This document shows positions 4,211 to 27,857 of a stretch of DNA of 58,487 nucleotides, piece after piece. Every line of letters begins with the position of its first letter. Positions within the stretch are counted from its first letter, which is position 1. The notes beneath the pieces were generated by a model that saw only the letters and a program-made list of their open reading frames with translations, made no database searches and was not told the DNA's origin. This stretch comes from a bacterium (GTDB lineage: Bacteria > UBA9089 > UBA9088 > JAGUXG01), in assembly GCA_030018505.1 (NCBI GenBank), contig JASEHO010000001.1, positions 1 through 58,487 on the forward strand, in the 5' to 3' direction. A program made the position numbers and the translations under genes.

Positions 4211-4476
4211 GTAACATTTAGCCACCTGAAGTAAAGATTAACAGAAGACCTTAGGGGATAGCAGATGAAAAGTATAGTATGTGGAGTTGATAACTTCAAT
4301 GATTATTCTGGTTCTGGATTTTTTAGAACTGCTGCTTGATTTCCAAGGTAAGGATTATTGAAATTATTTTTAAGAGAATGAAGTACAATGAAGGAAAAAG
4401 GAGCACCAGTAAAGAATTTGACTGATACTCTGGTGACTGGTGCACTCTTGGTTACTTCAGATGGCTAAAGTGTTAC
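4211..4476. repeat. Hairpin element with 24-nt inverted termini, same family
   Basis: gtaacatttagccacctgaagtaa (4211-4234) versus ttacttcagatggctaaagtgttac (4452-4476). These are reverse complements with 1 indel and 1 mismatch. The right arm recurs at 53877-53903. Confidence 0.65.
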
Positions 4477-24409: not shown

Positions 24410-24440
24410 AATCACTTACGAATAGTTAAAATGTATTAAG

Positions 24441-24530
24441 GGAGAGGTGCTGGAGTGGCCGAACAGGTACGCCTGGAAAGCGTATGATGGGGAAACTCGT
24501 CCGAGGGTTCGAATCCCTCCCTCTCCGCCA
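24441..24530 (+). tRNA. tRNA-Ser (anticodon GGA), CCA encoded
   Basis: Acceptor GGAGAGG/CCTCTCC, anticodon loop CTGGAAA, long variable arm TGATGGGGAAACTCGTC, T-loop GGTTCGAATCC, 3' GCCA. Confidence 0.9.
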
Positions 24531-24573
24531 ATTTACAATTTCAGCGTTTTTAAGGGTTGTTGCCTTGCCCTCG

Positions 24574-24605
24574 CTTGGACTGGCGAAATTTTTTGCGGCT
24601 GGCTT
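24574..24605. repeat. Left 32-nt inverted repeat bounding the R-M cassette
   Basis: cttggactggcgaaattttttgcggctggctt. Its reverse complement matches 27011-27042 at 29 of 32 positions, with a perfect 20-nt core (24580-24599 versus 27017-27036). Confidence 0.85.
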
Positions 24606-24645
24606 TTGATTTTTTTCTTGTCCCACCCTCTCCAGTGCGGAAAAG

Positions 24646-24837
24646 ATTAAGGAACTCCCTATAAAACGATTAAGAGAAAAACTGGGCTTGTCGCAGGAAA
24701 AACTGGCTCGGCTTGCCGATGTTTCCAATAATACGATAATCAATATTGAAGCAGGCAAGCAACAAAACCCGACTGTTGATACAATCAAGAAAATCGCAAA
24801 AGCGTTAAATGTTCCAATTGAGGACTTAATCAAATAA
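24646..24837 (+). CDS. XRE/Cro-family helix-turn-helix protein (candidate R-M controller C-protein), start codon unclear
   Basis: Frame 1 is open over 24610-24837: ...IKELPIKRLREKLGLSQEKLARLADVSNNTIINIEAGKQQNPTVDTIKKIAKALNVPIEDLIK*. No ATG or GTG lies upstream of the HTH, only ATT 24646, ATA 24661 and TTG 24688. It is missing from the ORF track for that reason. Confidence 0.5.
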   Translation: MKELPIKRLREKLGLSQEKLARLADVSNNTIINIEAGKQQNPTVDTIKKIAKALNVPIEDLIK

Positions 24838-24841
24838 ACCA

Positions 24842-25855
24842 ATGAAAGACAAAGCGTTAAAACATCGGGCACCGAGAAATAGAACTATCACATTGATCGA
24901 TAGCGATATTTCAAATTTTAAAAAACGGCTGATAAAAATAGGCAAACCCGTTTCGCTTGAAGAAATTGAGAACAAAACCATACATCAAGATATTTTTGAG
25001 GCATTAGATTATTTACCGGATAGTTTTGTTGATTTAGTTTTTGTTGATCCGCCCTATAATCTCAATAAAACTTTTAACCTTGCTTCGTTTAAGGAAATGG
25101 AGTCAGAAAAATATGAGCAATGGCTTGATTCTTGGGTTGTTAAACTTATTCGGATACTGAAGCCACACGCCTCTGTTTATATTTGCGGTGATTGGAAATC
25201 GTCAGGAGCAATTTTTAATGTAGCGAAAAAATATTTTAAAATACAAAATCGCATAACTTTTGAACGAGAAAAAGGACGAGGCGCAAAGAGCAATTGGAAA
25301 AATTGCTCCGAGGATATTTGGTTTTGTACACTTTCCGATAAATATCATTTCAATGTTGACGCAGTAAAAATGAAGCGTAAAGTTATAGCACCATACAAAG
25401 ACGAAAACGGAAAGCCGAAAGATTGGGAGGACGGCGACAATGGAAAGTATAGAATTACCCACCCGTCGAATGTTTGGACCGACATTACAATTCCGTTTTG
25501 GTCAATGCCGGAGAATACCGACCACCCAACACAAAAACCGGAAAAATTAGTCGCTAAAGTTATTTTGGCCAGCTCAAAACCAAATGATATTGTTTTTGAT
25601 CCGTTTCTCGGTTCGGGTACAACTTCGGTTGTCGCAAAAAAACTTGGTCGCCGGTATGTTGGGATAGAAATTGATGAGCATTATTGTTGTCTTGCTGAAA
25701 AACGGTTAGATATAACAGGAAACGAAAAAAACATACAGGGATACTCAGACGGCATATTTTGGGAACGCAATACACTTAACGAGCAAATGAACGGAAATGG
25801 AAAGGAAAATAAAGTTGAGTTATCAGAAAATTTATTTAATTCAAAATTATTATGA
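24842..25855 (+). CDS. Beta-class DNA amino-methyltransferase (DPPY; probably N6-adenine)
   Basis: Motif IV DLVFVDPPYNL precedes motif I FDPFLGSGTTSVVAKKLGRRYVGIEID, and HPTQKPEKL is present. Confidence 0.85.
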   Translation: MKDKALKHRAPRNRTITLIDSDISNFKKRLIKIGKPVSLEEIENKTIHQDIFEALDYLPDSFVDLVFVDPPYNLNKTFNLASFKEMESEKYEQWLDSWVVKLIRILKPHASVYICGDWKSSGAIFNVAKKYFKIQNRITFEREKGRGAKSNWKNCSEDIWFCTLSDKYHFNVDAVKMKRKVIAPYKDENGKPKDWEDGDNGKYRITHPSNVWTDITIPFWSMPENTDHPTQKPEKLVAKVILASSKPNDIVFDPFLGSGTTSVVAKKLGRRYVGIEIDEHYCCLAEKRLDITGNEKNIQGYSDGIFWERNTLNEQMNGNGKENKVELSENLFNSKLL

Positions 25856-27012
25856 TACATAAAGAAATTATTTCATTTATAAACTTCATAAAGTCTAAAG
25901 ACGGAATTGCCAACAAGACAAATCTGATTAGGGAAGTTCAAGAGAAATTCAAACTGACAAAAGACAGGTCGGTTTATTATTCAAAAAATTTTGCTGTTCG
26001 TTTCAATTTTTCAACTTCAACAAGTTTTTCAAATACCGTCATTTCTCTTTCTAACTTGCAAAAATACGACGACCAACCATTTATTGTTTGTTTAGTAACT
26101 CCAACAAAAAATATTTTATATCTGGCAAACTCAACCTTTTTGCATAAAGTTAGTCATAGTTCACAATTATTGAGAATTGATAATATTCGCGGCAGTATCA
26201 ATGGCCATGATATTGCAAAAAAGTTTTCGGATATAGACAATTTACCAGAAAATTTTGAAAAATTATTTAGCATTCATGCAGAATTAGGTTTTGACGGAAA
26301 TTTAGTCAGACTTGTTGAGGCAACAACAAATATTAGTCCGTCAGGGAAAAAATTTGTCGTAACCTCTACCGCTAAAGCGACGATTCAAGAAGCACCGCGG
26401 CGAGCAATGAATTTTGTGCAGTCAAAAGAATATACGCAATTGAAAGCAGAGTTAGACGCGAAAGTAGAAAAATACAAGAATGAAATTCTAATTGCTGGAT
26501 TTATCGAAAATGTAAATATAAGAGGGAGGGTCATTGAATATCTTATTGCTGGCGAAGATGAAAAATTAAGAAAAAGTTTGGTCAATGCCCTTCATGAACG
26601 CGGTAATGTAATTCCCGGATTTAAGACAAAAAATAGTCTTGCGGATTATATTCGCACATTTGATAAATTTAATACTGCTACCGATGTTAAAACAAAAATA
26701 ATGGTATTGAGTTCAAATCCAAAGGGCTACAATATAGATAAGTTATTGGAATTTTTAGCAACTGGAAAATCGGTGTTTATGTTTTATTTTATTGGTATAG
26801 AGCCAAACAAAATTGTAAATAAAATACTGACTTCCATGTTTCAAACAGACTTACTTAAATCAACCATATTGTTGAAACATTGGTCGGGTCGTAATTCCAG
26901 AGGCGTAACGCAATTTGAGGGAGGAATTATCCATAAACTAATTTTGTCGCCAAACAATAGAATTGATAATAGCGAAGGCAATAAATTTTTAGAAACATTG
27001 ATTGATTTGTAA
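25852..27012 (+). CDS. Hypothetical protein, candidate cognate type II restriction endonuclease
   Basis: 386 aa. Its ATG overlaps the methyltransferase stop (ATGA), and I recognise no family. A possible D...DxK site occurs at FDKFNTATDVKTK. The call rests on position only. Confidence 0.35.
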   Translation: MIHKEIISFINFIKSKDGIANKTNLIREVQEKFKLTKDRSVYYSKNFAVRFNFSTSTSFSNTVISLSNLQKYDDQPFIVCLVTPTKNILYLANSTFLHKVSHSSQLLRIDNIRGSINGHDIAKKFSDIDNLPENFEKLFSIHAELGFDGNLVRLVEATTNISPSGKKFVVTSTAKATIQEAPRRAMNFVQSKEYTQLKAELDAKVEKYKNEILIAGFIENVNIRGRVIEYLIAGEDEKLRKSLVNALHERGNVIPGFKTKNSLADYIRTFDKFNTATDVKTKIMVLSSNPKGYNIDKLLEFLATGKSVFMFYFIGIEPNKIVNKILTSMFQTDLLKSTILLKHWSGRNSRGVTQFEGGIIHKLILSPNNRIDNSEGNKFLETLIDL

Positions 27013-27042
27013 GCCCGCCGCAAAAAATTTCGCCAGCTCAAG
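27011..27042. repeat. Right 32-nt inverted repeat bounding the R-M cassette
   Basis: aagcccgccgcaaaaaatttcgccagctcaag. It overlaps the stop codon of the 386-aa ORF. Confidence 0.85.
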
Positions 27043-27089
27043 AGTTCAAAATTCGCAGTCCGGATTTTCGTGGAAAAAAAGTTCGGATT

Positions 27090-27857
27090 TTAACCAAAAG
27101 GCACCGTAGTTCTTATAGAAATTCCTCTTAGCCTCAGATAATCCTTTATCTCCATAATGCTATACTCGCCATAATGAAATATAGAGGCAGCCAGGCTGGC
27201 ATCTGCACCAGCTAAGAATGCCTGATACAAATGAAGCATCTCACCTGCACCACCTGAGGCAATCACCGGGATATTTATGGCGGAGGTAGTAGCCTTTATC
27301 AGAGCAAGGTCATAGCCGTTCTTTGTCCCATCTGCATCCATAGAGGTAAGGAGTATCTCACCTGCACCTAAATCTGCACCCTTTTTTGCCCATTCTATAG
27401 CATCAATTCCTGTAAGTTTTCTTCCACCATAAGTGTAAACCTTCCAACCTTCCCCATCCCTTTTGGCATCAATAGCCAGAACAATACATTGACTGCCGAA
27501 CCTCTTGGCAGACTCCTCTATGAGGCTTGGATTCTCTACAGCAGATGTATTTATTGAGCACCTATCCGCACCATGGCGCAGGAGCTCCTCAATATCAGAG
27601 AGCGTTCTTATTCCTCCTCCGACTGTGAGTGGAATAAAGACCTCTTCTGCGCATTTTTGGACAACATCAAGGATTATTTTTCTCTTTTGGTGAGAGGCGG
27701 TAATATCTAAGAGAACAATCTCATCTGCGCCAGATGTGTCATATACCTTGGCTTGCTCTACAGGATCCCCTGCATCTTTCAGGTCAACAAAGTTTATCCC
27801 CTTGACCACCCTTCCATCCTTTACATCAAGACAAGGAATAATTCTTTTGGCTAACAT
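27090..27857 (-). CDS. hisF: Imidazole glycerol phosphate synthase cyclase subunit HisF
   Basis: [20 protein letters not shown]..., ...VIASGGAG... Confidence 0.9.

Follow-up and report, generated by a model that had tools for sequence, protein, structure and literature searches.

Large serine recombinases (LSRs) mobilise SCC/SCCmec-type cassettes (by way of Ccr recombinases), the Vibrio PLEs and the serine-integrase prophages, and islands with defence cargo are known. Two further kinds of system are relevant here, namely the C-protein-controlled Type II restriction–modification (R-M) systems of the PvuII, EcoRV, Esp1396I and Kpn2I types, and integrons, whose attC sites measure 57–141 nt and are directly repeated. 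R-M is the main known defence of the Candidate Phyla Radiation (CPR, or Patescibacteria); how it moves between these tiny genomes is poorly understood. Two types of mobile R-M unit have been described: isolated R-M units between long inverted repeats, with target duplications of 8 bp, and units of R-M genes plus a tyrosine-type integrase that lie in tRNA genes between direct repeats (Furuta, Abe and Kobayashi 2010, NAR 38:2428, PMC2853133). The window examined here comprises positions 1–58,487 of contig JASEHO010000001.1 (assembly GCA_030018505.1), which comes from a bacterial lineage outside the CPR. It carries, next to a tRNA-Ser gene, a compact Type II R-M cassette between inverted repeats. 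We consider it likely that positions 24531–27105 are a stranded, integrase-less and partly eroded derivative of a small integrative element, and a non-CPR member of a widespread family that is apparently undescribed.

A repeat search places the two repeats at 24574–24605 and 27011–27042; they are 32 nt long, complementary at 29 of 32 positions (91%), and share a perfect 20-nt core. An 18-nt core probe, allowing up to three mismatches, hits the window at only two sites, where chance alone would give 0.04, and finds no others in the whole assembly (1.60 Mb in 227 contigs, 88% complete). Between the repeats lie three co-oriented genes, for a helix-turn-helix (HTH) protein, a DNA methyltransferase (MTase) and a restriction endonuclease (REase), and no open reading frame (ORF) for a transposase or integrase. 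The left repeat begins 44 nt past tRNA-Ser(GGA), which ARAGORN locates at 24441–24530. The G+C fraction is 0.30–0.37 in the block and 0.42–0.45 in the flanking lptB and hisF, which marks the block as foreign. An earlier sequence-only reading had listed the repeats with their degree of match, the three bracketed genes, the 44-nt distance from a tRNA-Ser gene, a higher AT content than in lptB and hisF, and the lack of a transposase or integrase inside; all of these are borne out. Its view that the repeats are the limits of the cassette holds in part: they are true boundaries and bracket other cassettes in many genomes, but their extents have to be corrected. By homology, the left arm starts at 24562, not at 24574, and the right-hand repeat-derived sequence runs on to 27105, into the end of hisF. 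The true ends of the element would then lie outside the 32-nt repeats, at 24531 (right after the CCA of the tRNA) and at about 27105. The boundary features are as follows.

24441–24530, plus strand: host tRNA-Ser(GGA), found by ARAGORN; its 3' end, ..CTCCGCCA, is the presumed integration point and the attB-derived half of a putative attL.
24531–24573, plus strand: segment 'S', a candidate antisense remnant of the last ~15 LSR codons and P' half of attL, assigned by position and by similarity to locus L060.
24562–24605, plus strand: left arm, innermost 44-nt core, with 91% identity to family arm positions 258–301.
24606–24660, plus strand: leader of ~55 nt (..GCGGAAAAGATTAAGGAACTCCCT); leaders 84–96% identical adjoin the core in ~25 loci.
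27011–27042, minus strand: right arm, innermost 32 nt of the core, with 94% identity to arm positions 270–301.
27041–27105, minus strand: outermost ~64 nt of the long arm (GGTGCCTTTTGGTTAAAATCCGAAC..), the putative P half of attR, with 95% identity to arm positions 1–64 (E 1.9e-22).

The tRNA is 88–95% identical in other genomes of the phylum and therefore belongs to the host. The right arm begins inside the REase stop codon; its 32-nt core is joined straight to the outermost ~64 nt, and ~205 nt of the arm middle are missing.

The arms are best understood from their counterparts elsewhere (loci and genomes are designated by L and G numbers). Window positions 24560–24661 match at 83–88% in L046 (genome G008, same phylum), L052 (a Patescibacteria metagenome-assembled genome, MAG) and L056 (a Saccharibacteria MAG); in L052 and L056, an inverted second copy lies ~3 kb off and encloses different genes. 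Pattern scans found the core in 16 genome and 41 metagenome contigs, with core-plus-leader identities of 83–100%, and inverted pairs 2.5–4 kb apart occur in ~17 of these contigs. Twelve of the 16 named contigs represent CPR lineages (Saccharibacteria, Niyogi-, Gribaldo- and Vogelbacteria, and 'Patescibacteria group'), and one contig belongs to a MAG of the Dehalococcoidia (L060). Of the 24 further genomes in the window's phylum, only G008 and G013 contain pieces of the arms. A 46-nt core is 100% identical in many of the contigs. The full arm measures about 290–300 nt, and the 32-nt repeats correspond to its innermost part. Where contigs permit, arms can be followed over 305 nt at 98% identity (L056), 286 nt at 100% (L102) and ~300 nt (L109, within a 560-kb contig). 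Many short contigs stop within an arm, as expected of a repeat that breaks assemblies.

Two kinds of outer arm end are found, GGTGCCTTTTGGTTAAAATCCG.. and TGTGGGATATTCTAAAC... An alignment of 20 arms yields a multi-hairpin fold with a consensus energy of −91 kcal/mol and 70 pairs, nine of them with compensatory changes; the arm pair 104–188 is AU in eight sequences and CG in seven. In Rfam, the tRNA alone passes the gathering score, with the arm matches (RNAI, leu/phe leader, a miRNA) far below threshold, and ARAGORN finds no tRNA inside the arms.

Between the arms, the ~55-nt leader always follows one arm, ahead of the first cassette gene. A small inward-reading HTH gene comes next in most paired cassettes (22 loci), and a beta-class MTase occurs in 37 loci, with partners that include TaqI- and TdeIII-type endonucleases. 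Other cargo comprises a SMODS/AGS_C cyclase of the cyclic oligonucleotide-based anti-phage signalling system (CBASS), an AAA_15 ATPase, a SEC-C protein and a DedA/PAP2-like membrane protein. Unrelated cargo is flanked by arms at least 90% identical to each other. Over 24765–27042, the R-M genes of the window recur in L099 at 84.7% identity, preceded there by another HTH 5' half; in L003 they recur without a left arm. Like arms around unlike cargo, together with the same R-M genes behind another HTH half, indicate that the arms delimit an exchangeable compartment. A look for the repeat at other loci, suggested by the sequence-only reading as a check, has thus shown the same repeats bracketing other, unrelated cassettes in many genomes.

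When the ORFs flanking the arms are clustered over ~37 loci, a single kind of mobility gene recurs outside the arms, an LSR gene (Resolvase + Recombinase + Zn_ribbon_recom). In L102, L109, L088, L117, L114, L115 and L119, this gene directly neighbours the leader-side arm on the outer side and points away from it; in L086, it is ~5 kb from its arm. At its 3' end, the LSR gene overlaps a convergent tRNA gene (for Asp, Ala, Ser or Pro) in L109, L102, L115 and L086; in G008, an LSR adjoins a tRNA-Ser-like gene, apparently with the same overlap. An inverted copy of the LSR tail abuts the outer end of the arm, over 134 nt at 100% identity in L109 and over 132 nt at 96% in L102. Short left arms are found directly 3' of tRNA or transfer-messenger RNA (tmRNA) genes in the window, L060, L068 and L094. 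The window's own 88%-complete assembly contains no LSR homologue at E<=1e-10.

The LSR genes have a peculiarity of their own. The ORFs in L109 (8695–10245), L102 (7998–9740) and L115 (5115–6956) possess no stop codon ahead of the tRNA, and the last ~10 residues (..NWR VVWDSNP and similar) result from reading the T-arm of the tRNA in antisense. Since it is read from the T-arm, the LSR C-terminus should differ between the integrated and the excised state.

The junctions connect the recombinase with the arms. With a slash at each boundary, the left junction of the window is tRNA..CCGCCA/ATTTACA..GTTGCCTTGCCC-core (that is, GCCC-core), and the right junction is ..AACCAAAAGGCACC/gtag (short form ..AAAAGGCACC/gtag). 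A joined form, ..AACCAAAAGGCACC/GCCA/ATTTTCA..GTTGCCTCGCCC (short form ..AAAAGGCACC/GCCA/ATTTTCA..GCCC), is present in L109, L088, L095 and L117, and an analogous one in L102, L119, L090 and G008. In other words, the left junction (tRNA CCA/S) and the right junction (arm end GGCACC/host) combine into the ..GGCACC/GCCA/S.. seen in relatives. In L109, L067 and L115, too, arms border on unrelated host DNA at the boundary GGCACCG/, the breakpoint being the same to within ~2 nt. The third, joined junction is attP-like, and the three make up an attL/attR/attP triad. Such a triad is predicted for recombination between attP and attB at a tRNA 3' end, with a putative GC-type crossover beside the CCA.

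Segment S is ~70% identical (manual count) to the segment in the same position after tRNA-Ser(GCT) in L060, and the latter segment matches the real LSR tail of L109 at 87% over 70 nt. Compared directly, the L109 LSR tail and the window agree at 71% over 66 nt (E 6e-5), a stretch that is partly tRNA antisense. In the window as in L060, segment S is fused straight to the core at GCCT(C/T)GCCC, and this 9-mer also ends the long arm. Fusion of the tail remnant to the core at the 9-mer in both loci fits a deletion between short direct repeats. Taken together, the findings support the view that the block came in by horizontal transfer as mobile DNA and occupies a tRNA integration site.

A 148-aa minus-strand ORF (24426–24872) extends antisense through the HTH gene, the leader, the core, the tail remnant and tRNA-Ser. 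In all likelihood this ORF is a leftover of the integrase tail frame and no gene.

From these elements, a mechanism can be proposed. In the intact layout, met with mostly in Patescibacteria, the tRNA is followed by the LSR gene, whose 3' tail overlaps the tRNA, and then by an inverted copy of the tail and a hairpin-rich arm of ~300 nt. The right part consists of the ~55-nt leader, the HTH regulator, a variable defence cassette (mostly Type II R-M), the inverted arm and host DNA. The LSR would recombine attP, composed of the arm outer end and the LSR tail, with the 3' end of the tRNA gene; the products would be attL (tRNA/tail) and attR (arm end/host). The near-identical inverted arms would delimit the exchangeable cargo compartment, given that unrelated cargo is found between identical arms. 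In the window, either a full element or a cassette-only derivative would have integrated at tRNA-Ser(GGA). A deletion between two GCCTCGCCC repeats may have taken out the LSR and most of the left arm, to give the order tRNA, 43-nt tail remnant, 44-nt core. The right arm has lost its middle, and the controller gene probably its promoter, operators and start codon.

Several roles of the arms fit the data: they may carry attP half-sites, offer homology handles for cassette exchange, and possibly act as transcriptional insulators. A more far-reaching proposal, which we regard as tentative and somewhat doubtful, is that the ~300-nt arms are parts of a cross-phylum cassette-exchange platform, in which each outer end would carry half an attP and each element would possess two inverted attP, one on either outer side of the cargo compartment. 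If this were true, defence cassettes could be swapped, flipped or delivered without an integrase, and the arms would serve as homology handles as well. For the ultra-small CPR bacteria, such a platform would then be what the integron is elsewhere, with a serine recombinase as its enzyme, and the window copy would show integrase-less cassettes landing and persisting in an unrelated Gram-negative lineage.

The three genes of the cassette are the following.

24646–24837, plus strand: HTH_XRE ORF, controller-protein-like and 5'-truncated (Pfam HTH_3, E 5e-20; PADLOC Control_protein, E 2e-11).
24842–25855, plus strand: beta-class N6_N4 DNA methyltransferase of 337 aa (Pfam N6_N4_Mtase, E 7e-45, profile 1–221 of 221; PADLOC MTase_II, E 2e-70).
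25852–27012, plus strand: Type II restriction endonuclease of 386 aa (PADLOC REase_II PDLC03461, E 2.3e-149, residues 5–384 against 3–382 of 384).

The HTH domain itself is intact; its frame is open from 24610, with no ATG, GTG or TTG ahead of helix 1. The only candidate starts are ATT at 24646 and ATA at 24661; the latter, which sits 7 nt after AAGGA, might still initiate translation. In L003, where the copy of the cassette is 94.6% identical, the HTH gene has a normal ATG and seven extra codons, and homology begins exactly at 24661. L003 is a 2.7-kb contig binned as Acetofilamentum, and the MAG binning of such short contigs is uncertain. A promoter/operator stretch of ~100 nt follows the leader in L052, L099 and L046 and is missing in the window. 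As far as can be judged from this comparison, the HTH controller gene has probably lost its promoter, operators and start codon, with an altered control of expression.

The DPPY motif of the MTase suggests that it probably methylates adenine at N6. The start of the REase gene overlaps the MTase stop (ATGA). The REase has no sequence match in Pfam, NCBIfam or PDB and is recognised only by the REBASE-derived PADLOC model. As it matches this model end to end, the block is a Type II R-M cassette; the R-M assignment of the sequence-only reading is thereby retained, but the partner that had seemed unknown is a recognisable Type II REase. Homologues of the REase occur at 31 loci, with an MTase adjacent in every one. 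With both the MTase and the REase ORFs intact, an active R-M system in the window is plausible.

On its right-hand side, the element runs into the following gene.

27090–27857, minus strand: host hisF; residues 1–250 align with orthologues, and the last five residues and the stop are element-derived.

The arm outer end encodes the last five codons of hisF (VPFG) and its stop. When the flanks are joined conceptually, hisF has no stop for ~30 codons and continues antisense through tRNA-Ser.

The relatively simple picture of a decayed LSR element is complicated by several points that weigh against it. In the reconstructed empty site there is no nearby hisF stop, so further rearrangement may have occurred or more DNA may have been lost. 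Neither the empty site nor an excised circle was observed: both same-genus genomes, G001 and G002, lack a hisF orthologue and a corresponding tRNA locus, and in same-order genomes hisF and tRNA-Ser are on different contigs, lptB is not beside the tRNA, and synteny is lost. An exact look-up of the LptB protein in other assemblies returned no record. The similarity of segment S is modest (~70% to L060; 71% to L109, including tRNA antisense), and its assignment depends in part on its location and on L060 as the connecting link. The attR in the window is GGCACCGT, as against GGCACCGC at other loci. LSR att sites normally need only ~50 bp, compared with the ~300 nt of the arms. Finally, an LSR could sit in the missing part of the 88%-complete assembly.

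Among other explanations, a non-autonomous DNA transposon comes to mind first, that is, a mobile insertion cassette or two arms resembling miniature inverted-repeat transposable elements (MITEs), moved in trans by a DDE-type transposase encoded elsewhere. The inverted terminal repeats (29 of 32 in the window, up to 305 nt in relatives) enclose no such enzyme, and internally deleted arms retain their inner and outer ends (window, L065, L098, L099). Units of R-M genes flanked by inverted repeats and 8-bp duplications are, moreover, documented (Furuta et al. 2010, PMC2853133). However, there is no target-site duplication at the 32-nt ends of the window (..GCCCTCG/ and /AGTTCAA) or at its true ends (..CCGCCA/ and /GTAGTTC), and the check for duplications proposed on first inspection is thus negative for either pair of ends; nor is there one at the outer ends of L056, L102 and L109. 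No transposase was seen beside any of ~57 copies, whereas an LSR was seen with eight, the genome holds just two copies of the repeat, and insertion at a fixed nucleotide at tRNA or tmRNA 3' ends is typical of site-specific recombination. Transposition of this kind is therefore very unlikely. The sequence-only reading had seen in the block a minimal R-M unit with terminal inverted repeats that may be mobilised in trans; the mobile nature and the lack of an own enzyme stand, but there is no target-site duplication, the arms measure ~300 nt in full, with the 32-nt repeats at their inner tips only, and an LSR, not a transposase, is the enzyme linked to intact relatives. Better placed, if still improbable as a full account, is the idea that the arms acted as portable homology and that the R-M cargo came by double crossover or gene conversion into an element already resident at tRNA-Ser, for instance following DNA uptake, and not through a new integration by the enzyme. 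Arms are 90–100% identical between elements with unrelated cargo. Those within one element are more alike (100% in L056, L070 and L102) than those of different elements, which suggests conversion. Breakpoints also fall inside shared modules, namely in mid-HTH at 24765 relative to L099 and between leader and HTH at 24661 relative to L003. Yet homology explains the turnover of cargo and not its first arrival at the tRNA, and in this respect it complements integration by an LSR. In addition, the window arms, now 32–44 nt plus 64 nt, are a poor substrate, and no pair of donor and recipient was observed.

It is also conceivable, but hardly credible, that the repeats have no role in mobility and are regulatory parts of the R-M operon, working as bidirectional terminators or insulators that protect a toxic REase gene against read-through from tRNA-Ser and hisF. 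In favour of such a function, the core has a small hairpin followed by a T-run that faces incoming transcription on both sides, and the full arms fold into the stable multi-hairpin structures described above (−91 kcal/mol consensus, nine compensatory pairs). The stem, however, has only 5 bp and includes a G-T pair, and the count of terminator-like structures is 2, against 2.2 in shuffled sequences; the insulator or terminator function that the sequence-only reading offered as an alternative is weakly favoured by one 5-bp hairpin with its T-run, a signal that does not exceed that of shuffled sequences. The same arms flank cargo other than R-M (DedA/PAP2-like membrane protein, CBASS cyclase), form sharp recombination junctions with tRNAs and LSR tails, and persist in G008 without any cassette.

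Some further candidates were considered and rejected. An abundant intergenic repeat of this genome (repetitive extragenic palindrome, REP, or MITE) would not be limited to two copies. A phage or plasmid origin was examined with blastn of the arm, which found nothing in 50,697 phage and 72,556 plasmid records; IMG/VR does not contain the core pattern, and tblastn of the REase gave no match in plasmids. Integron attC sites and Tn7-like ends (the arm ends read TGTGGG/TGGTGG) were dropped, as neither an IntI nor a Tns gene is present and the junctions fit an LSR att triad.

Several cassettes in other genomes deserve mention in their own right. A fusion of a LexA DNA-binding domain, an S24 peptidase and an N6_N4 methyltransferase (483–508 aa) is encoded in L067, L081, L068, L070, L090, L092, L102, L116 and L119. 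Its partner is either a 77-aa Cys/His-rich protein (no Pfam match) or a small, putatively GIY-YIG-like protein. It is uncommon for a methylase to be joined to an autocleaving repressor of the SOS type; such a fusion may link methylation to DNA damage. In L079, L095, L104 and L091, an SMODS/AGS_C CBASS-type cyclase with a ~170-aa partner takes the place of R-M, and the cassettes of L058 and L059 contain two small proteins that are TIR-like by eye only. In L066 (Niyogibacteria; 1245–1306 and 4274–4375), a distance of 3 kb separates the outermost 62 nt of an arm from its inner 102 nt, and L089 is similar; in L066, ~3 kb seem to have been inserted within the arm, or cassettes to be nested. L046 (G008:C36, 138–770) is a cassette-less remnant that consists of an inverted arm whose outer end is joined to a tail-like segment, followed by core, leader and an HTH-type promoter/operator stretch. 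It has no HTH gene and no cargo, and a separate nested palindrome of 170 nt lies just upstream (138–307).

The wider interest of the locus is that it ties a simple R-M cassette to a concrete vehicle, which would comprise a serine integrase acting at tRNA 3' ends and a cargo bay with structured inverted arms. The window copy places the cargo module of this vehicle outside the CPR, in a lineage with genes for lipopolysaccharide transport and the outer membrane and from a similar subsurface habitat. It also illustrates how such elements may decay into what looks like a minimal R-M transposon. Integrases with a short attB at a tRNA end and a naturally paired attP could be candidates for cassette-exchange tools, and the arms provide a sequence handle for locating defence cargo in metagenomes.

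Compared with the single R-M units described by Furuta et al. (2010, PMC2853133), the window shares a compact Type II R-M system, imperfect inverted repeats that are unique in the genome, a tRNA neighbour and a proposed mobilisation in trans. It differs in that there is no duplication, a whole family with exchangeable cargo has these repeats in common, and its linked enzyme is of the serine recombinase type. With C-protein R-M systems, the window has in common the order of a small HTH_XRE gene, beta-class MTase and REase, and the HTH protein fits the PADLOC control protein. In contrast to these systems, the HTH gene of the window lacks a canonical start and, apparently, a promoter and an operator region. 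No C-box was identified in the window, and classical C-box autoregulation is unlikely. Like integron cassettes, the family shows a promoter-proximal position, swappable cassettes, structured and partly palindromic boundaries, and frequent defence cargo. Its boundaries, however, are ~300 nt long and form inverted pairs, its cassettes possess their own regulator and promoter, there is no IntI, and no tyrosine integrase was seen beside any copy, so that the family is not a member of the integrons.

Close counterparts are the LSR elements. Like them, the family combines a Resolvase + Recombinase + zinc-ribbon enzyme with sharp attL and attR sites, small size, anti-phage cargo and integrase-less derivatives. 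An own LSR accompanies L102, L109, L088, L114, L115, L117, L119 and L086; the window has none and is, by this measure, a derivative and not an autonomous element. Full-text searches of the literature found no account of LSR elements in CPR that target tRNA genes and combine a duplicated tail with paired arms of ~300 nt enclosing swappable defence cassettes. What distinguishes the family from known LSR elements is that it targets the 3' ends of tRNA and tmRNA genes, that its attP overlaps the 3' tail of the integrase's own gene, and that it has an inverted spare copy of this tail and two hairpin-rich inverted arms of ~300 nt around its cargo.

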